DNA of 64,000 nucleotides from Schmidtea polychroa (GCA_044892525.1 CM097885.1:23746001-23810000), one strand, 5' to 3'. Shown: positions 38,038 to 59,981, counted from the stretch's first letter. Numbers and translations: made by a program. Notes: generated by a model from the sequence alone, not told the origin.

Positions 38038-39276
38038 TATCCCAATTTTTCATTTCATTTAAACCATATTTAAGAATATGATGTAAATCATATCCACGTA
38101 TATTATGAAAAATTACAGGCATGATAAACCTAATTTGTCTTGAAATATTACATTTGGAACAAGAAGCCCCCAAATATTTACCCGTGTAATGATCATGATC
38201 TTTAACTGGGTTTCCTAATAGTTTATTGCACAAGTAACAAATGGTTGAAGAACGAAAGGATTTTTTCTGGTCAGAAGAAAGAAATTCCATTTTCTTTTTG
38301 GAATTATTTAAGAAGTAAGGTAAAACTATTTTTTCACCATTGTCATTTATTTCAGTCAAAAACTGTTCAATACAGTTTAAACCATAAAAACTCTTATATA
38401 TATTTTCGCCAGTAAAATTATTAATTAATAATATTCCGGCTGAAATCGGCAAGTGGAGTTAAAATATTTATCGTCCTTAGGTAAAACAGCCTGAAAATCA
38501 GCATATACAACAAACGGAGGAGTCACAATCTTAGACCAATCTTTAAATATCAAGTTCTTATCGGAAGGAAAACTATACAAAGTTGTACCTAGTTGGTTTT
38601 TCTTACATAATGCCTGATGTTTCTTAAAAGCTTCAGCCATTCGGAATTCATTCAAGCATCGTTCACATCAAATACTCTGAATTCTAACATTTGAAACAGT
38701 ATTACAATTCAAGAGCCTGTCAAGATTAATAACTGCTATGTAATGAAAAGAGTCACTTTCATTCCAACAAAATTAAATTAATGGGAATTCCACCTACAAC
38801 TTTAGACTTATGTATGACATCTACAAAAGGATGTTTCAAAACTTCCTTATCATAACATTTATTAAGTCAAATTCATCATACGAAAGAACATTAATCGCAA
38901 TATCCAGGATTTTAGCCTCAAAATTTGGGATATAACACAATTTCATTGGCAAATCAGAAGAATCAAAGACAAGATCTGATGGATTATAACTAGATGCTAT
39001 ATTTCTATCATGTCTACTAACCTCATCATATTTTATAATAGATAAAATACTATAGATGAAACACATCGTCAGTGTTTTTCACATTAACCGAACGATATTT
39101 TAAAGATAATTTTGGAGAAGTATCAATACCTCCGTGACCACTCAACCTACTTATTTGTGAATATTTTGTCAATTTAAAACTAATTTATTTAATTTTATTA
39201 ATTGACCAGTTGCTACCATTTTCACAGACTTGAGTTATTTTATCATTCAAAAGAGCAATACTGTCATCTAAAAAAG
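38038..39276 (-). pseudogene. polB: Middle fragment of an older Polinton polB
   Basis: CFIYSILSIIKY, PPFVVYADF, CYLCNK..DHDHYTG..CSKCN and FHNIRGYDLHHIL are colinear with the intact PolB. Many stops and frameshifts. Confidence 0.9.
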
Positions 39277-42200
39277 TGTTGGGCTAGAAACCGTGGTAAT
39301 CAAAATTTTTGTAAATTTAAACTTTCTGTAAATTAATTAAAGGAAACCCTGTATTAACTTAAAATGAGGTAATCACCCAAATGTAAGGAAAATAAAGAAT
39401 AAAAGAGAGAAAAAATAATAAAATAAAACAAAAATTAAAACAAAAGTCACTAAAATAAAATAAATGATAAACAAGTTGCAAATAGACAAAAATACACAAC
39501 CATCACCAACAAGCAAAGAGAAAATAATTAGAACGAATAAAAATAAATATCAAAAGAACAAAATATTAATAAGAAAATAAATTATAATCAAGATAAACAA
39601 TAAATAAAAACAAAGAAAGAATAAAACACCAAATTACAAACAAAACTACCATCAGGATCCAACAAAAAAAAGAGGAAAATATGGAAATTAAATTATTTAA
39701 TAAATTATCAAAAGAAAAAGATAAATAACCTAGAAAGAGAAATTTAAAATAACAAAAATATGAAAAAACAATACTTCACACTGATTGAACGAAAATTACT
39801 ATATAAGGAAAACACTTGGTTGATTCCCTCAATTCTAACAAAACTCTATACAGATAAAATTATAAATTTTTTTAATGAATTCTAACAAAACTCTATACAG
39901 GGATCTAGTTCAATATCACTCCAATTAACCCAGTATTCAATTTGTATATCATATTACAACATTTTTCTCAGCATCTTATCATCTCTATCGGAAAGGAAAA
40001 ATGTAAATTTTCATTTATTATTAATTTTTTACAAATATTATGTTAATTTAATTGAATTTAAATATTATAATGATCATAAATTGTTCCTTCTTTTCTCCTC
40101 ACGATATGAGGTTCAACGACGATATTGTTCGGGGATTGTGAATGTGAGAAGCCAAATGATTGAGGAGAAGGAAAGCGTTTAGGCATGAGAGGGAGAGGTG
40201 GAAGGATTTTGAGCCAGGTTTCCTGATATTGAATCACATGACTTGAGTCGAGTAGAAATAGATATTGGCTGAATATTAGGGATCGCAGTATCACCAGCGA
40301 AGAAAATTCTCTACAAATATGATGAGGTAGAAATGAATCGTATGAATTGTGACAACTTAAAAATGGAATTACCCGAGAAAATGGAGAGCGTGAGATATGT
40401 TTTAGGCTGAGTAGTAATGATTGACAAATGAAGAATCGATTGTCATTGATGTAGAAAGGACTAAGAGGTATAATTTCCAATTTACGAAGAGTATGGTCGT
40501 TGAATGTCAAGATTGATTAGATTTTATTTTGATTACTCTTGAATGCTAGAGTGGGTTTGATTTTATTTAAACTTTGCGAATTAATTAGATTTATTATAAT
40601 TATTTATTTACCCGTTTGTGAGGATCGTTTGGGGATTGCTGACACTTGTGTCGGTAGTTACCAGATGATATTCACAGATGGCGAGACAAAGGTTATGACT
40701 TCCGTTTAGGAATGACTAAGTTATATGATAAAAAATTGAATATTCATCGAGTGGCAACTTTCCATGGTAGAAATGAACTCCAATTCGTGGGCTGGAACAA
40801 GAATAAACACTTCTAATTTTCGTCACAGTTACGATGAAAATCCGTTCAGTGCGTGAAATCACGATACTATGATCAATCTTAAAGCTTGTAGTCATCGGCA
40901 GTTACACACCTTAACATTAGCTGAGAGAGCTTCGATAGTTTTATCACGAATTATCATCCTAAAGTGTCCGATTTTCTTTCACTTTGATAGATCAAATTTT
41001 CCACGATAGACGGTTAACATCAACCGATACGAGATTCCCACCGTAATAGGATAGACCTTTGATTCGTCGCCTGTATTAAAACATCCGGTCTCTGAGATAA
41101 GAGGATACACGATATTCCACGACATCCATCTTGAGATATATACAATTACTGCTATTATAAACATCCTCATACAGGATGTCGACGATTTGTCATGATCAAT
41201 CTAATACACATGAACGAACATAGTAAGATTACGATGAAATTGACAAATCAACAGTCGGAATCAAGAACACCACTGAATCGGTCGTTTAGATTATTCTTAA
41301 GTTTTTCATGTTAATCTGTTTACTCGTCGGCGAGATTTCGATGCCACTGTGATGCGTGCCCCATCAATGATATAAACATACAATAGCACTATATCGACAA
41401 ATAATTTGGCCTGATTATTTTAATTAAATTCATGAGAAAAACATTTCTTCACTAAGATAAAATCGAGATGAGAACGAATAATTGTGAAAACTTAATATCA
41501 TAAGGAGACGATGATGCCCTATGTAAGGGAAGATATTGCAAAATTCCTAATCTAAAATAAAAAGTTTTTCTTTTCTTTCTCAGTTTTAATAATTTTTTGG
41601 AGTAATTAAAATATTAATCCATGGGGTGGTTAAGAAAATGATTTTCGTCACGAACAAAATTTGTAATTGAACATGAGAGAGTGAGTTGGAGTGGCTGATA
41701 GAGCTTTAAGTTTCATGGGCTATTTCCTAAGTCATGGTACTTTAAACAAGGGCCACTTATTCCAGCGAATAAATTTGTAATGTTAATAATAATGTAAAAG
41801 TGCTAAGTCAAATCTCACTACTGTTGAAACCAAACGAAATAGTTGAGAACCATTAAAACATATTAAAAAGCGGTCACATTCGACAGGAAAATAAATTTCG
41901 AAAAATTAAATGAGTGTTGAAACAAGGAGGATAATACAATGTTTGAGGTGTGATAGGAGTGTGTCAATCTATTTCGTATAGTTAAGATTTTATTTTTAAC
42001 TCATTTTTCCAGTATGTCGGAACCTAACTTGTCAATACGCGGCTCGAAACCCTGTTTTTCGTGCGCCGACAAGAATGCGGACATGCACAAGCTGAAAGAC
42101 CATATAGGGGCTCTGAAGAAGCGTATTGACACGCTGGAGCATACGTGGTTCTCCCCTCCACAAATGAAAGAGGCTAACATGAAAATCTTACGTCTCGAAC

Positions 42201-42723
42201 ATTGCCGGGATAGCCTATTGGAGGAAAGCAAATGCCAACGGCTCATGATCAAGGCCAAGTCAGAGGCCCTACATCAAATATACTCTGAATCCGAGTTAAA
42301 AAGGCGAGTCAAGGAGTTCCCAATAGCGGATAAGATGAATATTTTCCACATCCACTATCAAACGGATGAAATAACTTCATTAAAACCTTCTGGTTGTCAA
42401 GGCCATGGTCCCGACTTCCCGCCAATCGTCGCTTTTATCTTAGGCGGTGTACCACGTGCCAACGTTCCTCCGGAATCCACTCTTACTGAATCGTCACTCG
42501 TCGTATCTGTAGCACAATCAGATAGTCCAACAAAACTCAATTCCCGAAAAAGAAAACGTCCGACTCGTGCTGAGCGAACTCAACGACACCAAAGCAAAAT
42601 CACTGCACTAGAAGCCACGTTATTTGCGGCTCAGGAGGCTAACACAAAATCATCCAGTAGAAGTCTTATCGCACCACTCGCCACAGCTTCGTATCGAGTA
42701 ATCCCTTCGCAGCATCCGTGCTC

Positions 42724-43438
42724 AGTAGGGTATTGTGTGGACCCGGGAACAAAGACATATGACGTCATCGATGACGTCACAAAGACATATGANNNNNNNN
42801 NNNNNNNNNNNNNNNNNNNNNNNNNNNNNNNNNNNNNNNNNNNNNNNNNNNNNNNNNNNNNNNNNNNNNNNNNNNNNNNNNNNNNNNNNNNNNNNNNNNN
42901 NNNNNNNNNNNNNNNNNNNNNNNNNNNNNNNNNNNNNNNNNNNNNNNNNNNNNNNNNNNNNNNNNNNNNNNNNNNNNNNNNNNNNNNGTTGCGGTATTTT
43001 AAAATTTATATTACGTTGCGGTATTTTAAAATTTATATTACGTTGCGGTATTTTAAAATTTATATTACGTTGCGGTATTTTAAAATTTATATTACGTTGC
43101 GGTATTTTGAAATTTTAATTATTAAATATATTACGTTGCGGTATTTTGAAATTTTAATTATTAAATATATTACGTTGCGGTATTTTAAAAACTTATTTTG
43201 ATGGTTAAATAAAATAAAATTATTACACACAATACTCAGACAAAATATTCTGTTCCCCTATGGTCACACACACACAATGTATAAAAATATTATTTACACA
43301 CACGCAACAAGTTAGTGTTCTCATCGATATATTATTAATCTATATACTCCGAGTTTATCCGACAAAATATTCTGTCCCCCTATGGGTACTGCTAACAAGG
43401 GTACTGGTCGCGCTCAACAACTCGCAAGGGTATTATTA
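42724..43438 (+). repeat. Left terminal inverted repeat (about 700 bp or more, gapped), with a 27-bp tandem array at 42988-43190
   Basis: Reverse complement of 57810-58501 with a few indels. Repeat unit GTTGCGGTATTTTAAAATTTATATTAC. Confidence 0.92.
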
Positions 43439-43870
43439 NNNNNNNNNNNNNNNNNNNNNNNNNNNNNNNNNNNNNNNNNNNNNNNNNNNNNNNNNNNNNN
43501 NNNNNNNNNNNNNNNNNNNNNNNNNNNNNNNNNNNNNNNNNNNNNNNNNNNNNNNNNNNNNNNNNNNNNNNNNNNNNNNNNNNNNNNNNNNNNNNNNNNN
43601 NNNNNNNNNNNNNNNNNNNNNNNNNNNNNNNNNNNNGTAAATGTCACAAAGTTACTGTTAAAAAATATTCAAGACAAAACATTAACAAAGAAATTATACT
43701 TTAAATATACACTAAAATTTATTAACACACTGGGTAAAGGTGATAAAGGTAACTAACAAAACTTTAACATATTATTATTACACACAATGTATAAAAATTG
43801 TTCACAAAGTTACTGTTAAAAAATATTCAAGACAATATGACTAATACATTTATTAAATAATTTAAACACA

Positions 43871-46800
43871 TCATCGAAAATAATCATGTCCAAAATAATT
43901 ATCATCTGCTGGATCATGGAAATCATCTGTATCATCTGCTGAGATAGCTTCCGTTGAATCTATAAATATAACGGTGTCACCGCCCCTATAATGACCATAT
44001 GCCAAACTTTGATTTTTATCCACCCAATTTCGCTTATCATCTCTACATGTCAAGGCTCTTTTATTATTTTTAATACTAAAAAGTTGGTGATTTTTTGACG
44101 TTATTCTAAACTGAGGGACTGTGTATATTTTATCATTTAAATAACAATCTAGATACGACTGATGTGTTAGTCCAGTATCTTTCATACTTATCCCCTTAGC
44201 CTTCATACTTTCCTCATCACCCATCAAACTGTAACATTTAGGTCTCAAGAACACCCAATCTTTATATAATAACCCTTTATTCTCGTCTTTGAATTTACCA
44301 ATGACAGAATCAAGGTTCCTACTATATAAAGGATGATTTGGGTCATAATTCGAAGTATCTAATAATTGATCTCTAATCATCGCAGGTAAAAGAATGTCAA
44401 GACTACAATGTTTAATTTCCAAGAAGAAGGAATCTGTGTCTCCAGCAACGATATTAATTTCGCAGTTGAATTCGTCGCGATATTTTTGCAACTCTTCATA
44501 CTGCAGCTGGTACATCCTGAGTTTGGATAAATCAAGTACGGTTTGACCAATGTAACTAGGTCTATTCAAACATACTATGTCCTTCCTCAATAAAACCGAA
44601 ATCAAGTCATCATCGATTTTCGTGGATTTACGAAAAGTCGGTTTCGAACAGAATGTTAATAATCTCTGTGAAGAATTACACAGACGTAAATTAATACGTT
44701 TTTTAAGATTTTCAACAGTCTTGCCGTAAAGACTGTTGTTTAATAATTTATAAAAATTTTTATCGAGTTTATTTGTCGACGCTGCTCGTAACGCCGTATT
44801 TGTGTTAATATAATTTTTGAAAATTTTATCTTGTTTAAATTTAATTGCTCTATGTGTTTTTGATATTTTAACACCTAATTTAATAAATATTTGTAGAAGC
44901 CTCCAATGAAGAACGTAGTTCCTCTTGGGGCTGTGTGTAAGCAACAGCTTCTCTATTTTCGAACCCAGTACACACATCTTTTCAGCGGCAACGGGAAGAT
45001 CGTCCAGTTTGTCGTGAATTGACGTCGGTATTTCTAAATCCACTTCTATGGTATAACCATAATCAAGCAGATCTAAATCTACCGTTGTGCATTCAACAAT
45101 TATATTATTTAATAAATTATCATCAGTAACCCATTCAAAGTCACTGCAAGGTAATGGTTGACTTAAAGCCCAACCGTATAAATTATTTATATCTATGTAA
45201 AGCAAAGCGGTATCCGGGTCTGTTTTTACATAATGTTTATTTACAAAAGTTAGTCCGCCACGGATACCGCCCTCGAAAAAGTTATACATCTCCATATCGG
45301 TGAGGAGCTCAATTGGAGAGTTTAAAGTTAATAAGGCTGAATTCCAAGACATACCTGGAATCCCTAAGAAATTTAATGGCTCTAGTCGGTTATGAGCAAT
45401 GGACTTAGCTCTAAATTGCTGGAAAAAATCGGCTAAAAGGAAAACATCAAGTTTTAAATAAACCATCATGTAATCGAAAAGTGAAGTACATGAAGTTTCA
45501 ACCCAAATTCGCTGAGCTGTCTCATATTCAGCGGGAGTCACATCTTTCCAAATAGGAGGTAACTGATGAGTGTTATGCAAAACCTCTAATGAAGTTGCGG
45601 CATCATAAGGAAAAATTCCCTTTGCAGTTATTATTGTACCCTGAAATTCTGATTCGGTCAAGGGTAAAGATGATAAAGTTTTGACAGCATTATTTAAAGA
45701 CTCGCTGACAAATTGATAAGAGTCTATAAATTTAACAGTTAATGAGTCAATCCTAGCAAAAAGACTAAGGAATTTCTCGCTGGTTAAAGAAATACAACTA
45801 ATATTCCATGAATGATATTTTGAAAGGCCAAATTTCAAGATATGATGCAGATCATAACCCTTTAAATTATGAAATACTACAGGAAGGGTATGTCTAATTT
45901 GCCTCGACAGATTACAAGTTGTACAAGCGGCACCAAGATATAGACCGGTAAAATGATCATGGTCCCTAACTGGACTAACTAAAGGCTTATTGCACAAATA
46001 ACATGATGTGCTGTTTTCAAACATTAATTGTTGCTCATCTGTAATTATCATTTTCTTTTGATAATTTTTATAATAATAAGGAGTTACAATATATTTCCCT
46101 ATCATTTCAATTTCAGTAAGAAATTGATCGACACAATCTAAACCGGTGAACGACTTATAAATTTTTACGCCCGTGAAATTATTAATAAAAAGCATACCGG
46201 CAGAAATAGGCAGATGACGTTGAAAGTAGCGAGTGTCTTTAGGTAAGATAGCCTCAAAGTCAGCGTAAATAACAAAGGGAGGAGTAACTGTTTTACTCCA
46301 ATCAGTAAATTCTAAATATTTATTTTTAGGCAATGTGTACAAGGTAGTACCAAGCTGATTTTTATCGCAAAGACCCTTATGTCTATTAAAAGCGTCATCA
46401 TTCCTAAAACCGTTTAAACATCTAGGGCACCACTGACTACAAATCCTAACAGGAGTGATTGAACTATTCCTACAATTAAGAAATCTATTTAGGTCTGTGA
46501 TTCCAAGATAATGATAATTATCATTCTTTTCAATTAATAATAAATTGATAGGTATGGCTCCTACTATCTTACTCCTATATATTATATCAATAAAGGGATG
46601 TTTCATAACTGCATCTTCATCGGAAATGTCAATCAAAGCCCTTTCGTTATAAGTAAGAACATTAATACTATAACCCGGATTTTGTTGTTCAAATTTACTT
46701 ATATTTGATAGTTTCATCGGCATATCATTAGGATCAAATTTAATTTCAGAAAGATTGTAGGAATTAGGGCGATTTCTATATTGCCTATTTATACTATCAT

Positions 46801-47718
46801 ATTTAATAATTGACAAGAAACTATACAAAAAGCAGAAGTGGTCATTATTAACTACATTAACGAGACAGCTTAAGTTTCTTAAAGATTTTGGGGTTTCAAT
46901 AAAACTTCTACCACTTAACCGACTTATTTCAGCAAATTTAGTCAGAACAAAGCTTATGTATTCTATTTTATTGATAGTCCAATTACTACCTTTCTCATTA
47001 ATTTTAATTATTTTTTCATTTAAACGAGCAATACCTTCGTCAATGAATGTATCGCTCCAAACTCGGGCGGAATTCGAGATTACAAAAGATTGTAACTCAT
47101 CATCTTTTATAAATTCCACCTTTAGACAAAATTGAATTTTACATGATTTTAATTTATTTACATATAAATTTAATTTATTTATTAAAATGTCTGGTACAGA
47201 GACCGTTTTTAAATCTAAAGACGAAACGTCCATTTTTAATATAATATGATTATTATTTAAATCACTGGTGACATCTACGACACCATAACCTATTTGATTA
47301 TTATTATTATTATTACCATTATTATAATAAATATTACTACTACTATTATTATTATCAATTTCATCATCACTTATGTTGATTATTTCATCATCATCACTTA
47401 TGTTGATTATTTCAATAACTTTAGATTTTTTACTTGGTATTGAATTGATTTTTTCATTATTTTTTCTTTTATTCATATTAATTAGAATATTTATTTGATC
47501 ATTTAATTTATTTACTTGATCTTTTAGTTTAGTTATTTCGTTTATATCATTATTATTGGTGTTGTTAGTATTGTTGTTGGTGATATTATTATCATTATTG
47601 TTGATATTATTATTATTGTTGATATTATTATTGTTGTTGATATTATTAGTGTTGATATTATTATTAGTGTTGTTGATATTATTATTAGTGTTGTTGATAT
47701 TATTATTATTGTTGTTGA

Positions 47719-47749
<31 letters not shown>

Positions 47750-48425
47750 AAACGATTCATATAAGCTATAGAAAAGAGACTTCTTAGAAGGTTTAAATTG
47801 TTGGAGATGGAGTCTATGCTTATTATAAAATTCCTTATACGTTATAACTTCAATAACCTCACATTTAGGGCATAGGATGTAGGTGACACCGTTATATTTG
47901 TGACTATAATATCTTTCCATTATATCATCGCAGTCATTATGATATTGACTATTACAAAAGTTTTGGTATTTCAAACCTATGAAAATATTTTTATCATAAA
48001 ATGTTTAAAAAATAATAAGATAATAATCATTTTTAAAGTTTAAGATATTTTTCGTAAGATATTATTCAAAATTGACTTTTAAATAGTATCTTATAAGAAA
48101 TTATATATAATTTAATTCATTTTCATAAATAAATAATTCATTTTCTAAAATAGATTTTCATAAATAATATATAAAAGTTATTAATTATAATGTTCAAAAT
48201 CATCATCATATTTCATAAATCTTCTTTATAAAATCATCATAAATAAATAAATCTTCTTTTCATGAATAAATCTTTTCATAAATCTTCCTTTCAAAATTAT
48301 CATAAATCTTCTTTTCATGAATAAATCTTCTTTTCATAAATCTTCCTTTCAAAATAAGTAAATCTTCTTTTCATGAATAAATCTTCTTTTCATAAGTTTC
48401 TTCTTTTAATTATTATTATTATTAA

Positions 48426-48456
<31 letters not shown>

Positions 48457-48802
48457 ATTGTTTAAAAAAAAAAAAAAAAAAAAAACTTAAAAACTTATTA
48501 CAATAAATAAATACTTACATTTTCGTCCTTTCGAAAGAAATTTTCCAGCATCGGCACCATCAGAAGTATTTATTACATTTCCATCTAAAAGCATAATAAA
48601 AATAATAATGATAATAAGAGTAAACTATTACCATTTATTCTATTCATGTCTACATCTTGTCCGTCGATATTCATTTTAATTTGTTGATTAGTACCTAATA
48701 ATCATATTAAAAATAATAAAATAATAAAATAATAAATTTACCATTAATTCCTCCTACGATCTTTCCGTCAACTCTTTGAATATTGTTGTTGTTGTTGTTC
48801 AT
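43871..48802 (-). CDS. polB: Protein-primed family B DNA polymerase; predicted join(48742-48802, 48632-48694, 48519-48584, 43871-47976), 1431 aa
   Basis: Exo motifs YADFE, FHNLKGYD and YLKLDV. Pol motifs DINNLYG, KLLNNSLYGK and GDTDS. EndoVII-like Zn insert. The main exon is certain; the three upstream exons are predicted from phase-compatible GT-AG sites. Confidence 0.93.
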
Positions 48803-49232
48803 GTTGTTAAATATTGGTAATAGATTTTTAAAAGTGATGAAAAAATGAAAGTGTAGACTATATAAGAGAGATATTACAGGTTTTATTAACCGACCAATGA
48901 AAATAGAGATAGGATAGGAAAAGACACTACATGTTTGTTTATACAAACCATGATGAAATAATGACCTTTACATGTCTTTATTACTCAGTGCTTTGTTACT
49001 TTGCACTGTGCATGCACTGAACATGTAATAGTATTACATAATATTTTTAAACATAAAATTTAACAAATAATATATTAAACATAAAATAATAATATATTAA
49101 ACATAAAATAATAATATTTAACAAATAATAATAATATTTAACAAATAATAATAATAATATTTAACAAATAATAATAATATTTAACAAATAATTAAAATAG
49201 TCAACAAATAAAAATCATACAGTATACATTTA

Positions 49233-49644
49233 TTAACCATCAAATTTTTTATACAACAACCATGCCAAACAGTGTTGACCACATGTTTGAGTCAATGGAT
49301 TTTGAAACATAGTTTTATTATATACAATAGGTTTCCCAATTGTTTGAAGTTTTGATATCAACAAAGCAGGATAATAGAAACCCATAGGATCGAATACGAA
49401 TATATTACTAGGTTTCACATATATAGCTATCCAATGTTCTCCACCAAGATGAGACGAATGAGTATTGACGATTATGGCTTGATTATTGCTCAAATAAGGA
49501 ATTTTATCGAGAGGGAAAACACCTACAAATTCATTTCCTAATATTTGTTTTCCAATTCGATTAACCTGAACAGAACTACTTTAATAAAATTAAACAGTAT
49601 CAAAAAACTTACTCCATGACAACTTTTTGTGTTTCTGTATACAT
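49233..49644 (-). CDS. Adenain-like cysteine maturation protease, join(49613-49644, 49233-49575), 124 aa
   Basis: GVFPLD..VNT..GEHW..FD..Q..CG (His/Asp/Cys triad). A 37-nt GTAAGT..AG intron restores MYTETQKVVMDSVQVNRIG.., and its ATG directly follows the capsid stop (TAAATG). Confidence 0.9.
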
Positions 49645-50868
49645 TTATACTAGCACGGTTCTATTTGCAGTAATTTGAACTTCATTTTCAAATACTCCAT
49701 ATATTATAACATGTACCGGTTCAGTGATAGCTTTTGCAAACTTAATATCCAGTCGTAAATTCCCGTTTTGTGGTAGTTGACTCTGATTTAAATCAAAATC
49801 AGGGGCTAAAACAAATGTGAAAAATGGATATTTGCTTTTAAATTCTTCTAGAGTAATTCCACAATTCAAGTTTTTATCTAAGTAACCCAGATTTCTAACA
49901 ATACTCTGCATATATGTCGCACAGTAATTATCGCTTTCGAAATCTTGAGTATATGTTTCTCTATAATCAGTATTTTTCGACAAAGTCAATGAAGTAACAC
50001 CAAAATTTTTGAAAATTGAGCTGGAAGCAGTATAAGATCCATTATATTGCGTTTCACTTTGAAATGTTACCAGAATAAAATTAGGCATTCTTCTGTCACC
50101 AAATATTTGTTCTTTATAGAATGATGAAGCACCTTTAGCAATAGCAAATTGTACAATTTCCTTTGTTTTTAATGGATAAATTGCATGTTTTGAATTAAGA
50201 CCCAATTGATGACCAGCTAATACTGACGGGTCTACTCGAACTCTTCTCACCAATAATTTTGCATCAACTAATTGACATATTGGTGCACCAGTTGCACTAG
50301 TAAGAGTTAGTGCAGAATCGGACCTTTTCAATCTAATGTGTACATTAACTCCTGGTAGCAAATATTTCGGTTGATCCATAAAATCGAGTTGTAATGATGA
50401 GCACATAGTGAATGATTTTGAGCCTTTAACCCACTTTTTTCTTTCATCATCTGTTGCAGCATAACCCATAGGTGTAAGACAGGTATTTTTAGTATCAGAA
50501 TTGTAATTTAAAATAGTTTCTATCAAAGCCTTGTGAATGAATGTATTATTTCCGCCCTCAATCTTGATATTATTAAATCCCAACACTGCATCTTTAAATA
50601 GAGTATGAAACAGGAAATTGTTCGGTATTACATCTGCATTGGCATCCAAAACTTTTCTATCTTTATCTACAACCTTGATCTGGACAGTCAATAAAGTATC
50701 GTTCAAATCTAAATATTCAGTTTGCGAACCATTAATATAAAACTCGATATCATTTCTACTATCAGTAATTGAATTCATAGGAAAAACTTCCTCAAATGCC
50801 CCAAATTCTATTACAGCCTGGGGCGACGGTCTATCAAATATACATAATTCAGATTTACCACAAATCAT
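49645..50868 (-). CDS. Major capsid protein (double jelly-roll, hexon-like), 407 aa
   Basis: SELCIFD..IEFYING..YLDLNDTLL..NNFLFHTLF, typical of Maverick MCPs, in the expected position. ATGA overlap with the upstream gene. Confidence 0.9.
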   Translation of the reverse strand: MICGKSELCIFDRPSPQAVIEFGAFEEVFPMNSITDSRNDIEFYINGSQTEYLDLNDTLLTVQIKVVDKDRKVLDANADVIPNNFLFHTLFKDAVLGFNNIKIEGGNNTFIHKALIETILNYNSDTKNTCLTPMGYAATDDERKKWVKGSKSFTMCSSLQLDFMDQPKYLLPGVNVHIRLKRSDSALTLTSATGAPICQLVDAKLLVRRVRVDPSVLAGHQLGLNSKHAIYPLKTKEIVQFAIAKGASSFYKEQIFGDRRMPNFILVTFQSETQYNGSYTASSSIFKNFGVTSLTLSKNTDYRETYTQDFESDNYCATYMQSIVRNLGYLDKNLNCGITLEEFKSKYPFFTFVLAPDFDLNQSQLPQNGNLRLDIKFAKAITEPVHVIIYGVFENEVQITANRTVLV

Positions 50869-51227
50869 TTTGCAAATATAGTTCCATGTCCTTTCATTCG
50901 TTTGTTTATACGTGATATTCCATGTCTTTTACGTTTTGGAGCTGGGGCTGGAGGCGTATCTTTTTGAAACATACCTGCAACCCCTGGTAAAACTTTCCCT
51001 AATTCAGCTAAAGCATTTGTTTTTAGGGATGGTAATATTTTCTGTTCATTCATAATAACGTCTTTTGCAGTTTTCATACCAAAACTACCAATACGTTTAA
51101 GAATAGGCAATGCAAATCTACCAATTGTTCTCAACCATCCCGATCCGTACTGTTTACCAATAAAATATGGTAATTCGCCACCAGATTGGCTATCACTATA
51201 CATACTAATAATATCAGAATTTGCCAT
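50865..51227 (-). CDS. Small basic core-like virion protein, 120 aa
   Basis: Q-x-G-x-G motif (QYGSGW) followed by the amphipathic LRTIGRFALPILKRIG and a basic tail. Lies between the penton and hexon genes. Confidence 0.7.
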   Translation of the reverse strand: MANSDIISMYSDSQSGGELPYFIGKQYGSGWLRTIGRFALPILKRIGSFGMKTAKDVIMNEQKILPSLKTNALAELGKVLPGVAGMFQKDTPPAPAPKRKRHGISRINKRMKGHGTIFAK

Positions 51228-52287
51228 CTACTTTACGAAAATGTAGTGTCAAATGAGTTTTTGAGTCTTTTGGAAAGTTTATAAGTTTTCCACTATCGTC
51301 ACAAATATTTATTTCTATATTGTTTATACATGAGCTTGAAATTGGTAAATACATGGGATTATCTATATTTATATTGACAACTTCATCATGTTCATATTTT
51401 CCAATCCATACCGATTTCAAAAGAGGAACACTGGAATCACCAACAATTATGGGTTCGATAATGTTAGTATATATGAACATTTGTTGATGATGTTCTAGTA
51501 TTCTTGGTTTGCGTATACCAGTCGATTTTTCTCGATATTTTTGCCTATCTAATCCAAGTGAATTTGCCAAATTTTTATCAAATGTAACTTCGCAAATGTC
51601 ATCATTCAAACTGAAGGTAAACATCAAATCTTTCACAATTTCCAAATTTTTAAATATGTGTGAACAATTGAACTTTAAATATTTAAGTAAATCATCAAGT
51701 TTATCAAAATATAATTCATCAGCAAAGGTAAATGATTCTTCAACTTCATCATTATACGACACAGATATTTTGATTTCTTCTTTCATTACACTGTTTGCTT
51801 CAAATAGATTAAAACGTAATAAATACTCGGTCTCCGTAACAATATATTTCAACTTATTGCAACCCATTCGTTTGGCATCTTCAATAGTTTCGAATGTTAT
51901 TGTAAACGGTTTAAAATCACAACTGATATTTAATCCATCCTTGTAAAACATATAGCAATGCGAATCTAATATTTGATTCGGAATATGATATGTTTTATCA
52001 TAATTACTAATAACAAAGATACCGCTACATGTTTTCACAATATTCCTTCTGAAATCAATCTTACAATGACTATAAAATGGGAATGTGTTGTACACAAATG
52101 TAAAATCTTGCAGTGCAACTTCCCAGTCCCCATTTAAAGAAATCGGATTCTGGAGATTGACCATAGATTTACTGGCTTGATTGTCTGGATGAATTAATGG
52201 GCAACTATTGCTTGGTAAAATAGTATAAAAATTCACTTTACTAGATCCTTTTCTGATATCCATGATGGGTTTTGATAACCATGCCAT
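51214..52287 (-). CDS. Minor capsid protein (penton-like), up to 357 aa
   Basis: FYTILPSNS..N..S..V.LQNPI.L.GDWEVAL and MFIYTNII..VGDS.VPLL..YLPI..IEINI.D. Confidence 0.87.
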   Translation of the reverse strand: MAWLSKPIMDIRKGSSKVNFYTILPSNSCPLIHPDNQASKSMVNLQNPISLNGDWEVALQDFTFVYNTFPFYSHCKIDFRRNIVKTCSGIFVISNYDKTYHIPNQILDSHCYMFYKDGLNISCDFKPFTITFETIEDAKRMGCNKLKYIVTETEYLLRFNLFEANSVMKEEIKISVSYNDEVEESFTFADELYFDKLDDLLKYLKFNCSHIFKNLEIVKDLMFTFSLNDDICEVTFDKNLANSLGLDRQKYREKSTGIRKPRILEHHQQMFIYTNIIEPIIVGDSSVPLLKSVWIGKYEHDEVVNINIDNPMYLPISSSCINNIEINICDDSGKLINFPKDSKTHLTLHFRKVDGKF

Positions 52288-53352
52288 TTGACATAGTATT
52301 GTTTATCCTTGCCGACCTTTTTAGTTTTCAATATCTTTTGAATTCTAAATACTTTTGGAGGAGGAATAACTTGTAATTCTTGCTCATAAAATTTTCCTTG
52401 TACAATATTGTTATCATAATCACTGATGACATACATTACAGGATTCTGACTAGTATTTATTTTTGAAATTACAAAGACTTCATCACTCCAATTTGTATCG
52501 AAATTTTTAATAAATGGTGATGCACTAATTTTACTAATTCTAACATGGTCACCGACTTTATATTTAGGTTTTGCAATTTTTACAGATTTCTTAGAAGTCA
52601 ATGTTTTTGATGTAATATCAACCGGTCTTAATCCATTAAGTCCTCGATGTGATGAATGATTATAACTTGTTATTATTTTCGGTAAAGCATTTACCCATTT
52701 TTTATTACCTTGATGCACGAATAATTTCTTTAATCTATCTCTCAATGTTCTGTTAAATCTTTCAACATGAGCAGCTTTGTATTGAGAATGTACCGAGTAA
52801 TGGTTTATTTTCAATTTATTGAGGATTTGCTTGACTTTACTNNNNNNNNNNNNNNNNNNNNNNNNNNNNNNNNNNNNNNNNNNNNNNNNNNNNNNNNNNN
52901 NNNNNNNNNNNNNNNNNNNNNNNNNNNNNNNNNNNNNNNNNNNNNNNNNNNNNNNNNNNNNNNNNNNNNNNNNNNNNNNNNNTATTAGGATGTCCATCTT
53001 TAAATAAAATATTAATTGCCTTGGACATTTCATCTGAAGATTTTGCCTTGACGGGTATTGCTCGGGCAAACCGACTGAATACATCAATACATGTTAAAAT
53101 ATATTTATTCCCATTGTTAATTTTCGAATAAGGTATCATCTCCATCAAATCCATTTGCCATAAATCATTTATTCCATATGTTTTATATACTCTTGTTGGG
53201 AATCGTTTCTGCATTGGTTTGTTCAAACTGTACGCAAGCTGGTCTGATAACCACTTCTGGGTTTCCTTTTTCGAATTCGGAACTCTTTTGTTTAATTTTG
53301 CCACTCCACCGAAACCGGCTTCGTCTTCGGGGTTCGTCCAAATCTTCTCCAT
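52233..53352 (-). CDS. int: Retroviral-like DDE integrase with C-terminal chromodomain (spans the N-gap 52842-52982)
   Basis: WQMDL..YILTCIDVFSR..HVERFNRTLR..YNHS.H and YYVKWHGY..SWI. The frame change across the gap is a gap-size artefact. Confidence 0.92.
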
Positions 53353-53413
53353 TACAACAAGAAGATTTAATATTAAATTTAATGTCTGGTAATGAAGGAT
53401 TAGCACCCATTGT

Positions 53414-53908
53414 TTATGATCGACTTCCTATTATTCCACCTAATAATGATATTGCTAAAGGTATCAATGCACCGATAAATCCCCCTTGTTGTTTATATAT
53501 AATTTTTCTCATTTGTTGACGATTTTTATTATTTACTAATGATAGCAAAGGTTTCCTATGTTTACTCAATAATTGCTTTTTAGATTTACTGATTTTAATC
53601 TTGCCTTTGACTACTTTAAGTATAATATCGAGTAAATCATCGACAACATAATTTGGAAAAGATTGTAAAATACTGTTTCTTTTCATACTGGGTGCTTTTA
53701 ACAATGTATTGAAAAACGGGAAACTCCGATGATTTTTAACAACTTTTACTTTCTTAGTGGTTTTACTTTTAGGTTTAGGTTTAGGATTTTTCGAAATAAG
53801 ATTCATTGCAGGAAAATTTTCTGTAATAAGTTCTTTAGATGGAGTATAACTAGTTGTTGGTGGAACTTTTGGTTGTTTTTTACTCGATATCCTTGTTTTT
53901 GAAAACAT
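53414..53908 (-). CDS. Lys-rich protein with adenovirus pX-like C-terminus, 164 aa
   Basis: Ends KQQGGFIGALIPLAISLLGGII, resembling pX (RGGILPLLIPLIAAAIG) with an xGG cleavage-type site. Confidence 0.7.
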   Translation of the reverse strand: MFSKTRISSKKQPKVPPTTSYTPSKELITENFPAMNLISKNPKPKPKSKTTKKVKVVKNHRSFPFFNTLLKAPSMKRNSILQSFPNYVVDDLLDIILKVVKGKIKISKSKKQLLSKHRKPLLSLVNNKNRQQMRKIIYKQQGGFIGALIPLAISLLGGIIGSRS

Positions 53909-53921
53909 GATTTATATGTTT

Positions 53922-54560
53922 TCAATTTTGTTTTGAACTTTGTTTATAAACCATGGCACCTTTTGGGTTGAAAATATCTGTTTTTACCCGTATATCATCA
54001 GGACATTGTTGTGTGAAATCGAGAAATATATACCCATGAGGTATTTTCGTAGCATCTTGAAATGCATTGATAAGAAAATTACGGTTATTAGGGTATGCTT
54101 GTCGTCCAAGAAAATCAATGACAGTTGCATCTCTAGGATTCTTGAAAATAACTAGATATTGTACATTTAAATTACGTGTTCGATGTGCCCCACCTTGATG
54201 AAATAAATTTTGTGTTATGAAAATAACTGTTACACCAACATGTCTGCTGATTTTTGTGAATAAATTATTAAAATCCTTTTCTTTATTGGCTTCTTGATAC
54301 AAATCATCGATAATGATTACATCATCTTTCTTCAAACGACTTGACCAGTTTTTATCAAAACCCTTTACTATTTTCATGTTTTTCAATTGACAGAAACTTG
54401 ATTGTGTCAATCCATGTTCTTCATCGGCGCCCCTATGCCAATAAATATTGTTGAATTTTGTTTTGAACAAATTTGATTTTAGTAATTTACAAACAAATAA
54501 TGTTTTTCCGCTACCACTTGGACCAACGATTTGGTATACTGCATCATTTCGTAATTCCAT
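53922..54560 (-). CDS. A32/FtsK-like genome-packaging ATPase, 212 aa
   Basis: Walker A GPSGSGKT, Walker B IIIDD, SRH arginine finger and ITQNLF. Confidence 0.93.
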   Translation of the reverse strand: MELRNDAVYQIVGPSGSGKTLFVCKLLKSNLFKTKFNNIYWHRGADEEHGLTQSSFCQLKNMKIVKGFDKNWSSRLKKDDVIIIDDLYQEANKEKDFNNLFTKISRHVGVTVIFITQNLFHQGGAHRTRNLNVQYLVIFKNPRDATVIDFLGRQAYPNNRNFLINAFQDATKIPHGYIFLDFTQQCPDDIRVKTDIFNPKGAMVYKQSSKQN

Positions 54561-54572
54561 TTTTTAAATTTA

Positions 54573-54639
54573 AACTATATATAATTATTGTTTATATTGA
54601 TAATTTAAATGAACTCCTTTTTAAAATAACTATATATAA
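54573..54639. promoter_or_regulatory. Divergent promoter with two AACTATATATAA boxes
   Basis: Identical 12-mers at 54573-54584 and 54628-54639 in the 107-bp gap between the head-to-head ATPase and TBP-like genes. Confidence 0.55.
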
Positions 54640-54667
54640 CAGAGTTTTTTATAATTATTTCATTAAA

Positions 54668-55132
54668 ATGCTTTCAAATATAAATTACAGGGCAAAAGCT
54701 GATGTATCAAAAATGGTATTTCCAATGGGGAAACCACAACAACTCATCAATAGAAGTAAAAAATATCCAATAATATATTTCAAAACTGGTAAATGTAGAA
54801 TTATGGGGTGTAAGGAAATAATCAAAGCTAGTGAATATAATGTTTATGATTTAGAAATACAATCGATAACCATAACTTCCGATATAGGTTTTTCTTGTAA
54901 TTTAAATAAATTGGCTAAATTAATACCATGCTTTTACGAACCAGAATTATTTCCAGCTTTGAGATATATAAAATATAACCCTATGTGTGTAAATATATTC
55001 GCTAGCGGTAAGATAGTAATTCTTGGAATAAAAAATATTGATTACAAATGTATAGTTGATAATATCATATCTGAAATTAAATCAATAATTGAAGGAAATG
55101 AATTTTTAGATTTTTTATTATCACTTAATTAA
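54668..55132 (+). CDS. Divergent TATA-binding protein (TBP) homologue, 154 aa
   Basis: Repeat 2 FYEPELFPALRY..NPMCVNIFASGKIVILGIK resembles canonical SYEPELFPGLIY..KPKIVLLIFVSGKIVLTGAK. Repeat 1 IYFKTGKCRIMGCK resembles LIFASGKMVVTGAK. Confidence 0.85.
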   Translation: MLSNINYRAKADVSKMVFPMGKPQQLINRSKKYPIIYFKTGKCRIMGCKEIIKASEYNVYDLEIQSITITSDIGFSCNLNKLAKLIPCFYEPELFPALRYIKYNPMCVNIFASGKIVILGIKNIDYKCIVDNIISEIKSIIEGNEFLDFLLSLN

Positions 55133-55253
55133 TTATTTATCATTACAAATTCAATGCAATTGAAATGCATGATTCTGATTGGTCGAAATCTAATTGGCTG
55201 ATGATTATTTATAACAAAATGTTTTCGGTTTAGTTGTCATTTATTCAACAAAA

Positions 55254-55661
55254 ATGTACAACATACAAAGTTCCGCAATCACCTCAATGAAAGAGCATGC
55301 AAATTATGGTAATTTCAAATTTTTATTATTACATTAATATATATATTTTACAGATGAATATCAATCAATTATCCTGCAAAGATTATGCTTCTATTATCCA
55401 GAATTAAATGAAATTCTACAAGATAGAGATAAAGCTATCATTCCGGATTTGGTATACAACCAAACACGAATCTGGATATTTGATATAATAAACACCTTTC
55501 TATGGGATATCAAGATAGGAAGGGGGATGAAAGAAATGAAACCAGAGGCTCCTTGCATTTTCGGATGTAGCTGTTGCAATTTCCGTTATCAACAATATGT
55601 TGAATGGTGTTTGGTGAAGACTCTGAGAAATCACCACTCGAGTCAGATTGTATCAAAATAA
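55254..55661 (+). CDS. Unknown Cys-rich protein, join(55254-55308, 55354-55661), 120 aa
   Basis: A 45-nt GT..TTTTACAG intron contains an in-frame stop. Spliced product MYNIQ..ANYDEYQS..PCIFGCSCCNF. Confidence 0.75.
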
Positions 55662-55793
55662 ATTTTTATGTTGAATTGTTTTGTTTTTGTAAATCGAAAT
55701 AATAGAAATAATAATAATAATAGTAATAGAAATAGTAATAATAATATAAGTAATAATAGTAATAAAAAACAATATTTATAATAAAAACATTAA

Positions 55794-56411
55794 TGCAACA
55801 TTAATGCAAATGACATGCAATTTAAACAAAGACATACAGCAATCTGATTGGTTGATAAACAATAGTCATAGGTATAAAAACCCTGTACCATTTCATTTTA
55901 ATCATAATTCACGATGACAAAGAAAATTTCAAGCACTGAAAAGCCAAAAGTTGTTCCAGAACTTGTAAAACCTGTTCAAATGTTCCACAACTATAAAATG
56001 TATTTTTTAAAAGAAGAAATCAATATGAAATTGGCGTCGCCGATCAAGCTAATTCCAACTAAATTTCAATTCTTATCCGGCACGCTTTCAATGATAGATA
56101 TTAAATCTATTGATGAGGTTTTCAAACGGTTGAATACGAATCTATCTTGTAATCAACATGCCTGGTTCAACAACAGATATGCAAGATTTTATGATTCCTT
56201 TGATGAAATCGGTTTCAAAGAAAACGAAAATTGGTATATAACAATTGCAATCCAAGGATATAAAGTAGATAATAATGATGTGTATTCTCCAATTTGGAAA
56301 ATTATGTCTGCTAGACTTTCACAACTATTTTAATGTTATATTTAATAAATGTATTAGTCATATTTGTTTTTTCTCTTTATTAATTGCAACATTAATGCAA
56401 ATGACATGCAA
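55794..56411 (+). promoter_or_regulatory. Duplicated 27-bp promoter module containing the octamer ATGCAAAT
   Basis: TGCAACATTAATGCAAATGACATGCAA is identical at 55794-55820 and 56385-56411, each upstream of a gene. Confidence 0.7.
55914..56333 (+). CDS. Unknown 139-aa protein (possible OB-fold ssDNA-binding protein)
   Basis: Clean ATG ORF with its own GATTGG+TATAAA promoter and AATAAA. The fold guess is weak. Confidence 0.65.
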   Translation: MTKKISSTEKPKVVPELVKPVQMFHNYKMYFLKEEINMKLASPIKLIPTKFQFLSGTLSMIDIKSIDEVFKRLNTNLSCNQHAWFNNRYARFYDSFDEIGFKENENWYITIAIQGYKVDNNDVYSPIWKIMSARLSQLF

Positions 56412-56460
56412 ATTTAACAAAGAAAATCTATAAACAAACTTATAATATAGTTTTAAAGTG

Positions 56461-56786
56461 ATGAAAATGACTGCAGAAAAAGGTTAACATGATTAATTAA
56501 ATACTGAATTATTTATTATTTAGAATTATTAATCAACTTTTTGTTGGAAAAATTAGCAGAAATATCTGGTGTAAAAATTGAGGATATATTATCTGTTACA
56601 AATGCATTAAATATCGGCTGGGTAGTTGAGAGTCAAGATTCAAGATTTGAAGAAACCGATACTCAAGAAATTGATGACGAAATCTATGAACCTAAAGATA
56701 ATATTACGAATGATTGTATTGATCATGTCGTTGAAAATATAATGAAATGTGGAGATGACGATTGCGAATGTGTTAATAAATTTTAA
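56461..56786 (+). CDS. Unknown acidic protein, join(56461-56482, 56524-56786), 94 aa
   Basis: A 41-nt GT..TTATTTAG intron supplies an ATG in frame: MKMTAEKELLINF..EETDTQEIDDE..KCGDDDCEC. Confidence 0.7.
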
Positions 56787-56830
56787 AATTGAATTATTTT
56801 CATTTAAATATACTATTAAAAACAATAACA

Positions 56831-57359
56831 TTAATTTTTATTCATATATCTACAGAAAATATACATTATAACAACTCCAGTTGTAAGTTTTATAAAGTTT
56901 TTCATTTTTCTTTTGATTTCATCAGTTTCTTTAAAATTGCAGGCCAGTTTATTTAATACACCCCATCCGCCATTGGCTTCTATCCATGGGGTAAACTTGG
57001 ACTTGATTATCTAGAAATGAATATTATTAAAATATAGATTATAAAAGAAATCTTACTTCTAAAGACCACTGATAATAATGTTCTGAGTCATGTTGACCTT
57101 TTGCAATGATTATCTTCATGTAGGTGAATCCTACAATTATCCTTGTCCATTTCATGTCTTCATCGAAAAGACACTGAAATATTCTATTGAAGTAATACTT
57201 CTTGGTTTCCAGGGATTCCATCTCCATCATCTGCTGATAATCGATATGTTCACCTTCAATGATTTGTTCGGTTCGATTGATCAGGAAATTGAGGCTGTCG
57301 ACTATATTCGCGGTGACAATTCCGTTTAGAACATTTTCCATAAAATTTGGTTGCGACAT
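56831..57359 (-). CDS. Bcl-2-family protein, join(57057-57359, 56831-57010), 160 aa
   Basis: BH1-like LFDEDMKWTRIIVGF. A 46-nt GTAAGA..TTCTAG intron brings in BH2 WIEANGGW and the hydrophobic tail LTTGVVIMYIFC followed by RYMNKN. Confidence 0.85.
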
Positions 57360-57809
57360 TTCTAAATTAATTTAAAATATAATGTTTTATTTATACTAAT
57401 ACCATATGATTTTGATTGGTTGATAGACTATAAATGTAAAAGAAAGGTTTTGATTTGATACACCATAAAAACTGTATTGCTAATTATTATTATAACGAGT
57501 GTGTGCTAACACAATACTATAAATTTTATAATATTCGACTATGTTTTTTGTTAACTNNNNNNNNNNNNNNNNNNNNNNNNNNNNNNNNNNNNNNNNNNNN
57601 NNNNNNNNNNNNNNNNNNNNNNNNNNNNNNNNNNNNNNNNNNNNNNNNNNNNNNNNNNNNNNNNNNNNNNNNNNNNNNNNNNNNNNNNNNNNNNNNNNNN
57701 NNNNNNNNNNNNNNNNNNNNNNNNNNNNNNNNNNNNNNNNNNNNNNNNNNNNNNNNNNNNNNNNNNNNNNNNNNNNNNNNNNNNNNNNNNNNNNNNNNNN
57801 NNNNNNNNN

Positions 57810-58501
57810 TAATAATACCCTTGCGAGTTGTTGAGCGCGACCAGTACCCTTGTTAGCAGTATCCCATAGGGGGGACAAAATATTTTGTCGGATAAACTCG
57901 GAGTATATAGATTAATAATATATCGATGAGAACACTAACTTGTTGCGTGTGTGGACATTAATAATATTTTTATACATTGTGTGTGTGACCATAGGGGAAC
58001 AGAATATTTTGTCTGAGTATTGTGTGTAATAATTTTATTTTATTTAACCATCAAAATAAGTTTTTAAAATACCGCAACGTAATATATTTAATAATTAAAA
58101 TTTCAAAATACCGCAACGTAATATATTTTTAAAATACCGCAACGTAATATAAATTTTAAAATACCGCAACGTAATATAAATTTTAAAATACCGCAACGTA
58201 ATATAAATTTTAAAATACCGCAACGTAATATAAATTTTAAAATACCGCAACGTAATATAAATTTTAAAATACCGCAACNNNNNNNNNNNNNNNNNNNNNN
58301 NNNNNNNNNNNNNNNNNNNNNNNNNNNNNNNNNNNNNNNNNNNNNNNNNNNNNNNNNNNNNNNNNNNNNNNNNNNNNNNNNNNNNNNNNNNNNNNNNNNN
58401 NNNNNNNNNNCCGGGGGGTGGGGGGTATGACGTCATATGTCTTTGTGACGTCATCGATGACGTCATATGTCTTTGTTCCCGGGTCCACACAATACCCTAC
58501 T
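57810..58501 (-). repeat. Right terminal inverted repeat (gapped)
   Basis: Mirrors the left TIR, with a 27-bp array at ~58069-58278, a G-tract at 58411-58425 and TGACGTCA sites. Confidence 0.92.
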
Positions 58502-59078
58502 GTGCTCCAATATGATCCGCATCTATAGACAGATATTGATGCGATGATAAAAGAAGGAGAGTTGATGTGAAAAGATCCGATTCCGTACCTCGAGAGATGA
58601 ACTATCGTTCCAGCCAAAACGTATCGGTCATTGTTTAGTATAGACACTGTACAAGACTTTATATGATCTATCGGTGTTAATTCTTGTCGTATGCAATAGA
58701 ATTCGTTGAAAAGGGCCTCGTGTTCTCACATTTTCATACGAAATTATGTAGAAAGGTGTTATTTTCTAAATCCGTCATTATGTCGAAAAACCAAGAATTC
58801 TGAAGTCGTCTCACTGAACCAGAGACAGACCGTGGTTAGAAAGACGAGTAGCGTAGATGTAAGTCCTTCTATCGATATTCAGGAACCCGTACAGCAAATA
58901 TTGTGAATAGTAGTCATAATGCAGGGGCTAACCTGTTCGGAAGTTCCAACCCGAGTGTGCAGCACCAACATGACATATCATCATGGGCACACATGAGGGA
59001 GATCATTGTCAAGTCATGACGGACATTTACTGAATTCGACAGTGAATAAATAACATTCCCCTAAGTCACCAGCAAAAG

Positions 59079-59610
59079 TATCTATCACTCATGGGTTTCG
59101 CCGAATTAGATATTATAAAAGACTGAAATTGTCCATCTTTTCAAATTCTACATCTATGCAGAATTGAATTTTAACATATCCCATTTCGGATATAACAGAA
59201 TTTAATTTAGTTATAAATGGTGCAGGGATAATTAATTTTTTTAAATTTAAAGAAACTATTTCAACAATTATAACCACCATATTGAACAATATTTTCGTCA
59301 TTTGATGAATAAACATCTTCATCATCGGAAATTACGAATAGTTTCGATGGTTGTGGACAAACAGTAACCATTCGTCTTTTATTTAGACTAATAAATGCAA
59401 AAAGATTCTTCTTTGTACAAGAAAATTGATTTAAATGTGCACAGTGTTGACTATAAAAGTCAGAAAAAGTTATATTTTGGAAGCTCTTACAAATGGGACA
59501 TATAAAGAAGGTGACTCGTTTATTCACATGTCGATAGTATTTTTTCATTATTTTATGGCAATTGCGGTCATCATGGACTTTACATTGACAATAATTCGGG
59601 TAAAGATTAC
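59079..59610 (-). pseudogene. polB: N-terminal fragment of the older Polinton polB
   Basis: YPNYC..HDD..C..IMKKYY..CPIC..H..HL.QF and KIQFC..EF..QSFIISNSA align to the intact PolB N-terminus. Confidence 0.8.
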
Positions 59611-59981
59611 CTTAATTATAAAATACCATTAAAATTATTCAAAGGTTTTTTAAATATCATAAAATAAAAGAAATTCGATATATAATTGTAATTATACACA
59701 AAATATTATTATTATTACTAAATAATATTAAAGAAATCTGATTAAATTAATGTTTACACAAAACTTTGCCAATTATTATTATTTATTAGAAGAAATATTT
59801 ACAAAATTTATTACTAAAAATATTTACTAAATTAAAAATTATATTAAATTTCCTTTAAATCATAAAAAGTAATCAATACTTACATTGTAAATTTTCATTT
59901 CGATTTATTGACATATAGACATAATTTTTCTCTTTATTCGTATTACCTAAATTACTAATTATATCCTGCAACAAAGACGAC

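Follow-up and report, generated by a model that had tools for sequence, protein, structure and literature searches.

Long terminal repeats (LTRs) of animal Metaviridae are described as having TGTTRNR...YNYAACA ends, a low-complexity U3, an AATAAA signal with a GT-rich stretch behind it, and an R/U5 part that is better conserved than U3 (PMC3601003). Among planarian elements, Burro has an internal region of up to 25 kb, a total length above 30 kb and thousands of copies; since the total exceeds the internal region by that much, its LTRs should measure several kb (PMC6431247). Planarian genomes are more than 70% A/T (PMC11410931), Maverick expansions are described in Dugesia (10.64898/2025.12.11.693146), and Burro, Gypsy and Polintons are found together in the B compartment (PMC10558129). 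We here analyze a stretch of 64,000 nucleotides from Schmidtea polychroa (GCA_044892525.1 CM097885.1:23746001-23810000; hereafter the window, with positions counted from its first letter), and within it a mobile unit of about 4 kb lying between positions 39277 and 59074. We regard it as probable (roughly 0.7 in our estimate) that this unit is a solo LTR left by a giant LTR retrotransposon of the Gypsy (Metaviridae) type; this figure includes the possibility, weighed below, that the unit has to be read in the reverse orientation. By analogy, the chance that the parent element was of the planarian Burro kind appears slightly better than even.

A mobile unit of 4 kb inserted into an old Maverick polB

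The initial annotation had described the whole span from 39277 to 59074 as one element of about 4 kb with exact ends, TGTTGG...CCAGCA, and a 4-bp target-site duplication (TSD), AAAG. The span does hold a genuine mobile DNA unit (M), which is 4,014 bp long, but 15,778 of the 19,798 bases belong to a nested Maverick/Polinton of 15.8 kb that separates the unit into two parts (Table 1). The terminal letters and the TSD are exact on both sides, with junctions reading ...aaaag/TGTTGGGC at 39277 and CCAGCA/aaag at 59074; in 200,000 random trials, TG...CA together with a matching 4-mer fell within at most ~8 nt of such a junction in 0.6% of cases.

When the flanks of M were aligned separately, they matched adjacent positions of an intact polB relative (43871-48004) at ~65% DNA identity, the right flank at residues ~300-321 and the left at ~318-388 onward. 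The two alignments overlap slightly, and no target DNA was lost at the insertion. The earlier statement that removal of the element restores the interrupted polB therefore stands insofar as the flanks are collinear and adjacent, although the old gene is decayed on both sides of M, in several frames, and was not otherwise intact.

About seven related pieces occur in the window, together ~22% of its length, and we divide them into an A-type (M, C1, C2 and C3) and a B-type (B1, B2a and B2b). Pairwise DNA identity among them is 59-71% and is confined to the A-rich tract and promoter region, one middle block, the open reading frame (ORF) and the terminal block; because of this low and patchy identity they represent related families and not recent copies. 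Both ends are visible in M alone. Right ends in the window nevertheless read CCANCA in 5/5 cases (CCAGCA, CCAACA and three CCACCA) and visible left ends read TGTTGGGC in 2/2, all in different flanks, so that the shared termini expected of one type of element are indeed present. These ends also decide the length of the TSD: a 6-bp duplication, AAAAGT, is ruled out by the second left end TGTTGGGC (28677, minus strand) and by the five CCANCA right ends, since the terminal T and A are thereby seen to belong to the unit, leaving 4 bp.

Several of these pieces had been annotated before. The recurrence at 2356-6619 corresponds to C1, whose CCAACA end was correctly given, while its left end falls inside an N run. 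The inverted copy at ~28150-31560 is a real minus-strand copy, C2, but the region holds two copies, since C3 cuts the ORF of C2. The pieces at 900-1700 and 31690-32730 turned out to be those of the B-type, with CCACCA ends.

Pfam scans covered 22 long ORFs, 117 further ORFs and, for the three middle regions, 12 of the 18 frames. No reverse transcriptase (RT), retroviral integrase, gag or transposase family was found in any copy among ORFs of at least 62 codons, a limit under which short decayed pieces could escape, and no terminal direct or inverted repeats of the unit scored above shuffled background. Both results agree with the lack of RT, integrase, transposase and terminal direct repeats noted previously.

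Internal layout and the ORF A protein

On the strand that encodes the main ORF (ORF A), the A-type copies share a common order of features. All four have first an A-rich tract of ~520 bp (55-59% A), and in all four GATTG(G/A) is followed after 12-14 bases by TATATA(A), as the initial annotation had proposed. A donor-like CAG/GTAAAA lies 52-55 nt past the TATA in C1 and C3 and is absent from M and C2. Further downstream lies the middle block, with the motif GTCGGTAG, in three copies (M, C1 and C2); the C1 and C2 versions agree at 62/80 positions and close in a shared ATG/GTAAGT. Degenerate coding regions on the opposite strand had been suggested for this part of the unit. They were not borne out: no Pfam family reached the cut-off in the frames scanned, blastp returned short C1-C2 matches only, over this same DNA block and none with M, and the 18 mismatches of this best shared block fall 6/7/5 by codon position, as compared to 13/4/37 for ORF A. 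Lacking codon periodicity, the block is therefore best described as conserved non-coding DNA.

An acceptor-like site stands 5' of the ORF in 4/5 copies by a set rule, against a background of 0.7% within 2 nt and 6.4% within 20 nt; B1 and B2a share the intron phase and a similar peptide (LKL-E) behind it. Downstream of the ORF, C1 and B1 carry AATAAA and a TTG-rich tract at a distance of 356 and 302 nt from their ends, respectively, and no comparable poly(A) signal was found in B2b. The last ~230 bp are common to A and B types, with 8-mers in register with the end in M, C1 and B1.

ORF A is a true protein-coding gene under strong purifying selection. Differences between copies fall 27/17/65, 18/14/50 and 13/4/37 by codon position in the three comparisons, with synonymous differences (pS) of 0.75-0.95 and nonsynonymous differences (pN) of 0.09-0.19. 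In M, the tail beyond the Maverick is weakly similar and broken, and continues to ~58572. The predicted protein has long helices at residues 18-101, a disordered linker, and a basic stretch with a helix at 185-214 (AlphaFold model with pLDDT 68.5 and pTM 0.33); the shared core consists of W-x-x-P between the long helices, then the linker, then an Arg/Lys-rich stretch. The ORF of the B-type copies, ORF B, is a distant relative whose similarity to ORF A is weak (E 3e-5 among 11 sequences) and whose codon-position bias is less pronounced (16/15/27 and 14/13/24).

An exhaustive search of 1.84 billion proteins retrieved eight relatives of ORF A, all of them UniParc records, at E 5e-8 to 3e-4 and 30-38% identity. 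Seven of the eight are fused to unrelated eukaryotic host domains (SNF, GDC-P, CRAL-TRIO, L21, subtilase, PTP and ABC). We read these, from the protein records, as gene models that probably absorbed an intron-borne repeat, and because the seven partners are unrelated to each other the repeat seems to be dispersed elsewhere too. Other searches with ORF A gave no Pfam family, no match at 0.9 or above in the ESM atlas, a single PDB sequence match at E 0.58, and 0/183 passing candidates in a word-indexed protein search.

Taken together, the main blocks of the unit, including ORF A and the conserved 3' block that other copies share, had been recognized from the start; its splice-like organization and the fact that ORF A evolves under purifying selection had escaped notice.

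Origin of the unit

The features by which solo LTRs of Gypsy/Metaviridae are recognized are largely present here: TG...CA ends bearing att sites that are short, inverted and imperfect, a matching duplication in the 4-6-bp range around a single unit (AAAG, in the one testable copy), TATA (4/4 A-type copies) followed by AATAAA and a GT-rich tract (C1 and B1; AATAGA in M), and neither internal gag-pol nor terminal repeats. Since the TG...CA ends come near the TGTTRNR...YNYAACA att consensus and the TSD is 4 bp long, insertion by a retroviral-type integrase is supported, as had been suggested at the outset. Among the three origins then offered, a giant gene-bearing solo LTR fits best and a Ginger-like element fails on its terminal inverted repeats (TIRs), while a wholly new cargo-carrying family seems less likely, as known giant-Gypsy solo LTRs already account for size, ends, lack of enzymes and scatter of copies. 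The giant Burro polyprotein (Gag, BIR/BCL2, Env, PR-RT-RH-IN) is absent from the window, as solo LTRs would predict. Grohme is said to have reported in 2018 that solo Burro-1 LTRs far outnumber full copies, with an intron-size peak near 4 kb.

Under this reading, a full-length parent with ~4-kb LTRs would have inserted into the old Maverick polB by means of its own DDE integrase, generating the 4-bp TSD; gag-pol would then have been lost by recombination between the two LTRs, so that a single LTR remained, flanked by the duplications. Later, the young Maverick jumped into ORF A. The other pieces may derive from several related families, as solo LTRs or parts of LTRs within a transposon nest. 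From the motifs that are present, putative borders would delimit a U3 of ~550 bp (A-tract and ATTG/TATA), an R of ~3.1 kb with the spliced gene, and a U5 of ~300-380 bp. Such an LTR would yield a short spliced mRNA for ORF A, and the full-length RNA would require that introns be kept and the first poly(A) site skipped. ORF A, in which an Arg/Lys-rich basic motif is present, could tentatively be seen as a coiled-coil nuclear accessory protein of the Rev/Rex-like kind, acting in trans on the RNA or transcription of the parent; it would then favor unspliced full-length RNA over the short LTR transcript. More speculative still is the general idea that these giant LTRs are complete spliced gene units with a Rev/Rex-like switch that arose in an invertebrate Gypsy lineage, and that the many solo LTRs in host introns would, as functional gene cassettes, go on supplying the protein in trans.

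Several observations weigh against this account. The TSD could be tested at one of the ~7 pieces only, and the inverted match of the ends of M covers 5 of the first 6 bases, with the att consensus matched imperfectly. No full-length parent, primer-binding site, polypurine tract or gag-pol piece was found beside any end in the window. M has no GT at the first donor position and carries AATAGA, 380 nt from the end, in place of AATAAA. The acceptor rule was fixed after the sequences had been inspected, and C2 misses it narrowly. Folding of the terminal block beats shuffles in 1/8 tests and is no better in the other seven. It is atypical for an R to extend over ~3 kb and to hold a sense-strand intron together with an early poly(A) site, which has to be suppressed in the 5' LTR. 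As to the function of ORF A, Foldseek found no match to its fold at E 0.001 in viral and PDB libraries, and the sole basis of the link to Rev is a Pfam REV match of one relative, below cut-off (E 0.0013; 1/12 rows).

A solo LTR in the opposite orientation, with U3 at the TGNTGG end and U5 formed by the T-rich tract ending GCCCAACA, is unlikely but deserves consideration. ORF A would then be antisense, spliced and transcribed from its own promoter within U5, much as HBZ is in HTLV-1, and an antisense position would explain how introns survived reverse transcription. TATATA reads on both strands, both strands start with TG, and the basic stretch and helix of ORF A look bZIP-like by eye. However, no bZIP family matched ORF A at E 0.1, ATTG lies 5' of TATA on the ORF A strand, as it does in Maverick promoter-like sites, and the best-conserved block of the unit would become U3, which is the more variable part of the LTR (PMC3601003).

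Less probable again is a stand-alone, non-autonomous element with att-like ends and one regulatory gene, mobilized in trans by an integrase of Gypsy, Ginger or Maverick type. Its promoter, gene and poly(A) signal do look like a complete transcription unit, and the many pieces in 64 kb come with no gag-pol remnant. Yet solo LTRs commonly outnumber full copies, an element with neither terminal direct repeats nor TIRs has no known route of copying or excision, and the Maverick present here gives a TSD of 6 bp, not 4.

A non-autonomous Ginger DNA transposon is very improbable: Ginger1 and Ginger2 do have 4-bp TSDs and TGTNR ends, and Ginger2 favors AT-rich targets, but the TIRs that define them (40-270 bp and 50-180 bp, respectively) are missing from the unit, in which the inverted match stops after 6 bases with a score at shuffle level (PMC2836005). 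Segmental duplications of a host gene, which might be suggested by the gene-like makeup of the unit (promoter, introns, poly(A) signal), are refuted by the TSD inside polB and by the insertion of one copy within the ORF of another; homology also ends sharply at TG and CA with unrelated flanks, the relatives are fused to 7 unrelated genes, and chance has a similarly negligible share.

Two further classes were set aside. A non-autonomous LTR element of the TRIM/LARD class (terminal-repeat retrotransposon in miniature or large retrotransposon derivative) is ruled out, as there are no terminal direct repeats, and so is a Maverick/Polinton derivative, as long TIRs starting AGT and a 6-bp TSD are found in the nested element only.

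The transposon nest and known systems

The window has a GC content of 31% and is packed with eukaryotic transposons, in which Pfam recognized Tc1-like, hAT, pogo/CENP-B-like and Maverick pieces; the low GC content and the abundance of Mavericks would fit a triclad flatworm. Rfam and ARAGORN (tRNA) scans of the window gave no match. The coordinates of the unit, its relatives and its target are collected in Table 1.

Table 1. Features of the unit M, its relatives and its insertion site in the window.
Feature	Position	Strand	Remarks
Target, downstream half of old decayed Maverick polB	38024-39276	-	flank alignment
TSD left copy, AAAG	39273-39276	+	junction reading
M, left part	39277-42723	+	att end TGTTGGGC through ORF A to Maverick
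A-rich low-complexity tract, putative U3	39277-39800	+	57% A; stops in all three frames
Promoter-like block GATTG(A)-N-TATATAAG	39783-39807	+	common to 4/4 A-type copies
Conserved non-coding block	40470-40680	+	AT-rich gap, then GTCGGTAG; C1 and C2, unlike M, have clear splice-like sites
Splice-acceptor-like TTTTTCCAG	42003-42013	+	just 5' of ORF A start
ORF A of M	42014-42721	+	236 codons up to Maverick
Maverick/Polinton, not part of unit	42724-58501		15,778 bp; TIRs, 6-bp TSD, genes
M, right part	58508-59074	+	tail of ORF A; AATAGA as candidate poly(A) site (58695); conserved terminal block; CCAGCA att end
Conserved terminal block, putative U5	58825-59074	+	71% to C1 over 235 aligned bases
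TSD right copy, AAAG	59075-59078	+	
Target, upstream half of same old polB	59075-59611	-	flank alignment
C1	2357-6619	+	left end hidden in N run 2173-2356; right end CCAACA
C1 features	TATA 2749; donor-like sites 2801, 3330, 3508; AATAAA 6264	+	
C1 ORF A	5378-6125	+	broken by frameshift near 5611
C1 insert, inverted-repeat	4413-5202		790 bp
C2	28678-31590 (limit ~31590)	-	no left end; TATA 31093; C3 interrupts ORF A (28993-28679)
C3	28083-28677 (limit ~28083)	-	inserted in C2 ORF A; starts with TGTTGGGC, has A-tract and TATA 28164, and is truncated thereafter
C3 donor-like CAG/GTAAAA	28109	-	
B1	260-1706	+	acceptor-like site 919, ORF B 922-1299, AATAAA 1405, terminal block, end CCACCA
B2a	31680-32124	+	ORF B broken, preceded by acceptor-like site and followed at once by end CCACCA; most of terminal block absent
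B2b	32480-32727	+	terminal block only, end CCACCA

The nested Maverick is young and near-intact. Its 6-bp TSD, GTGCTC, occupies 42718-42723 and 58502-58507, and its TIRs, which are at least 700 bp long and start with AGTAGGG, are 99% identical (244/246 positions in the inner part, 98.6% over 73 nt in the outer). It encodes polB, an A32-like ATPase, an integrase with rve and chromo domains, and a TBP-like gene (54467-55132; Pfam TBP, E 1e-14). The polB contains an Asn-rich insert, and its closest relatives, mostly contig proteins, show 53-60% identity. When the window was searched with the Maverick integrase, no second remnant of such a gene came up. Maverick polB sequences that are older and decayed lie at 7055-7417, 38024-39276, 59075-59611 and 63476-63999 and represent at least three remnants. 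The piece 32125-32330 resembles Maverick DNA at first sight but is an AAT microsatellite.

Around the copies, the insert in C1 resembles a miniature inverted-repeat transposable element with 16-bp subrepeats, and two inverted stretches, 1979-2172 and 7554-7752, that are 63% identical bracket C1. Upstream of ORF B, a 64-codon open stretch (260-451, plus strand) has at its end an RGRP motif that we take to be AT-hook-like; this stretch may represent either an additional gene or the tail of a further copy (E 0.39 against ORF A). A piece of an eIF3f/Rpn8-type MPN gene (1688-1966, minus strand; PDB matches at E 3e-6 to 1e-5) is cut by the end of B1 at 1706.

Elsewhere in the window, an intact 752-codon ORF (14410-16668, plus strand) has no Pfam match, looks transposase-like by eye and has inverted repeats near 14124 and 16980. 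A Tc1/IS630-like element (11977-13439; helix-turn-helix and DDE_3) has TIRs of 21-bp subrepeats and an ORF frameshifted near 12700, and an exact 472-bp tandem duplication (8565-9525) may be a recent event or an assembly artefact. Of six N runs (2173-2356, 42793-42987, 43439-43636, 52842-52982, 57557-57809 and 58279-58410), four lie at mirror positions in the two Maverick TIRs and one covers the left end of C1.

Solo LTRs do not normally encode proteins, and an LTR with its own selected gene would stay coding after deletion of the parent. If so, ORF A would give a first handle on the regulation of a 30-kb retroelement RNA. In any case it represents a small protein family without a Pfam, PDB or atlas match that appears to corrupt gene models elsewhere, seven of eight relatives being chimeric.

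Among known systems, Ginger1 and Ginger2 resemble the unit in their 4-bp TSD (AAAG here) and TGTNR start (TGTTG here), but the unit has neither TIRs nor a transposase, and AAAG is not the CCGG/CCGT of Ginger1. Plant Ogre elements are similar in the size of their LTRs, 1.9-6.5 kb, whereas their extra ORFs are placed in the internal region and their hosts are plants (PMC6431247). The consulted parts of PMC8532177, PMC6884822, PMC13465017 and PMC6839031 added nothing on LTR detail. The planarian Burro/GYPSM1 elements, compared here by description only, are alike in their implied multi-kb LTRs, very high copy number, AT-rich host and co-location with Polintons. They differ in that section 7 of PMC6431247, which treats their accessory ORFs and the domains of the polyprotein, makes no reference to a gene within the LTR. 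A gene within a Burro LTR was not described in any of the literature that our search reached, which did not include the main Burro papers; should the unit prove to be just the known Burro LTR, with an ORF that had gone unnoticed, what is gained is an annotation and a testable gene.

Retroviral genes that lie in or overlap an LTR include MMTV sag, HIV nef, foamy virus bel and HTLV-1 HBZ, and retroviral regulators include Rev and Rex. The unit shares with these an accessory gene tied to the LTR, a putative spliced mRNA and an Arg-rich motif, although none of them matches ORF A in sequence or fold; in the unit, unlike in the retroviral cases, a single LTR seems to contain the promoter, the ORF and the poly(A) signal alike. 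With the LTRs of Metaviridae the unit has in common the TG...CA att ends, the TATA, the AATAAA with a GT-rich tract, the low-complexity U3 and the conserved terminal part. It is about ten times the usual length of such LTRs, and it differs from them in holding, between TATA and AATAAA, a selected and probably spliced protein gene.

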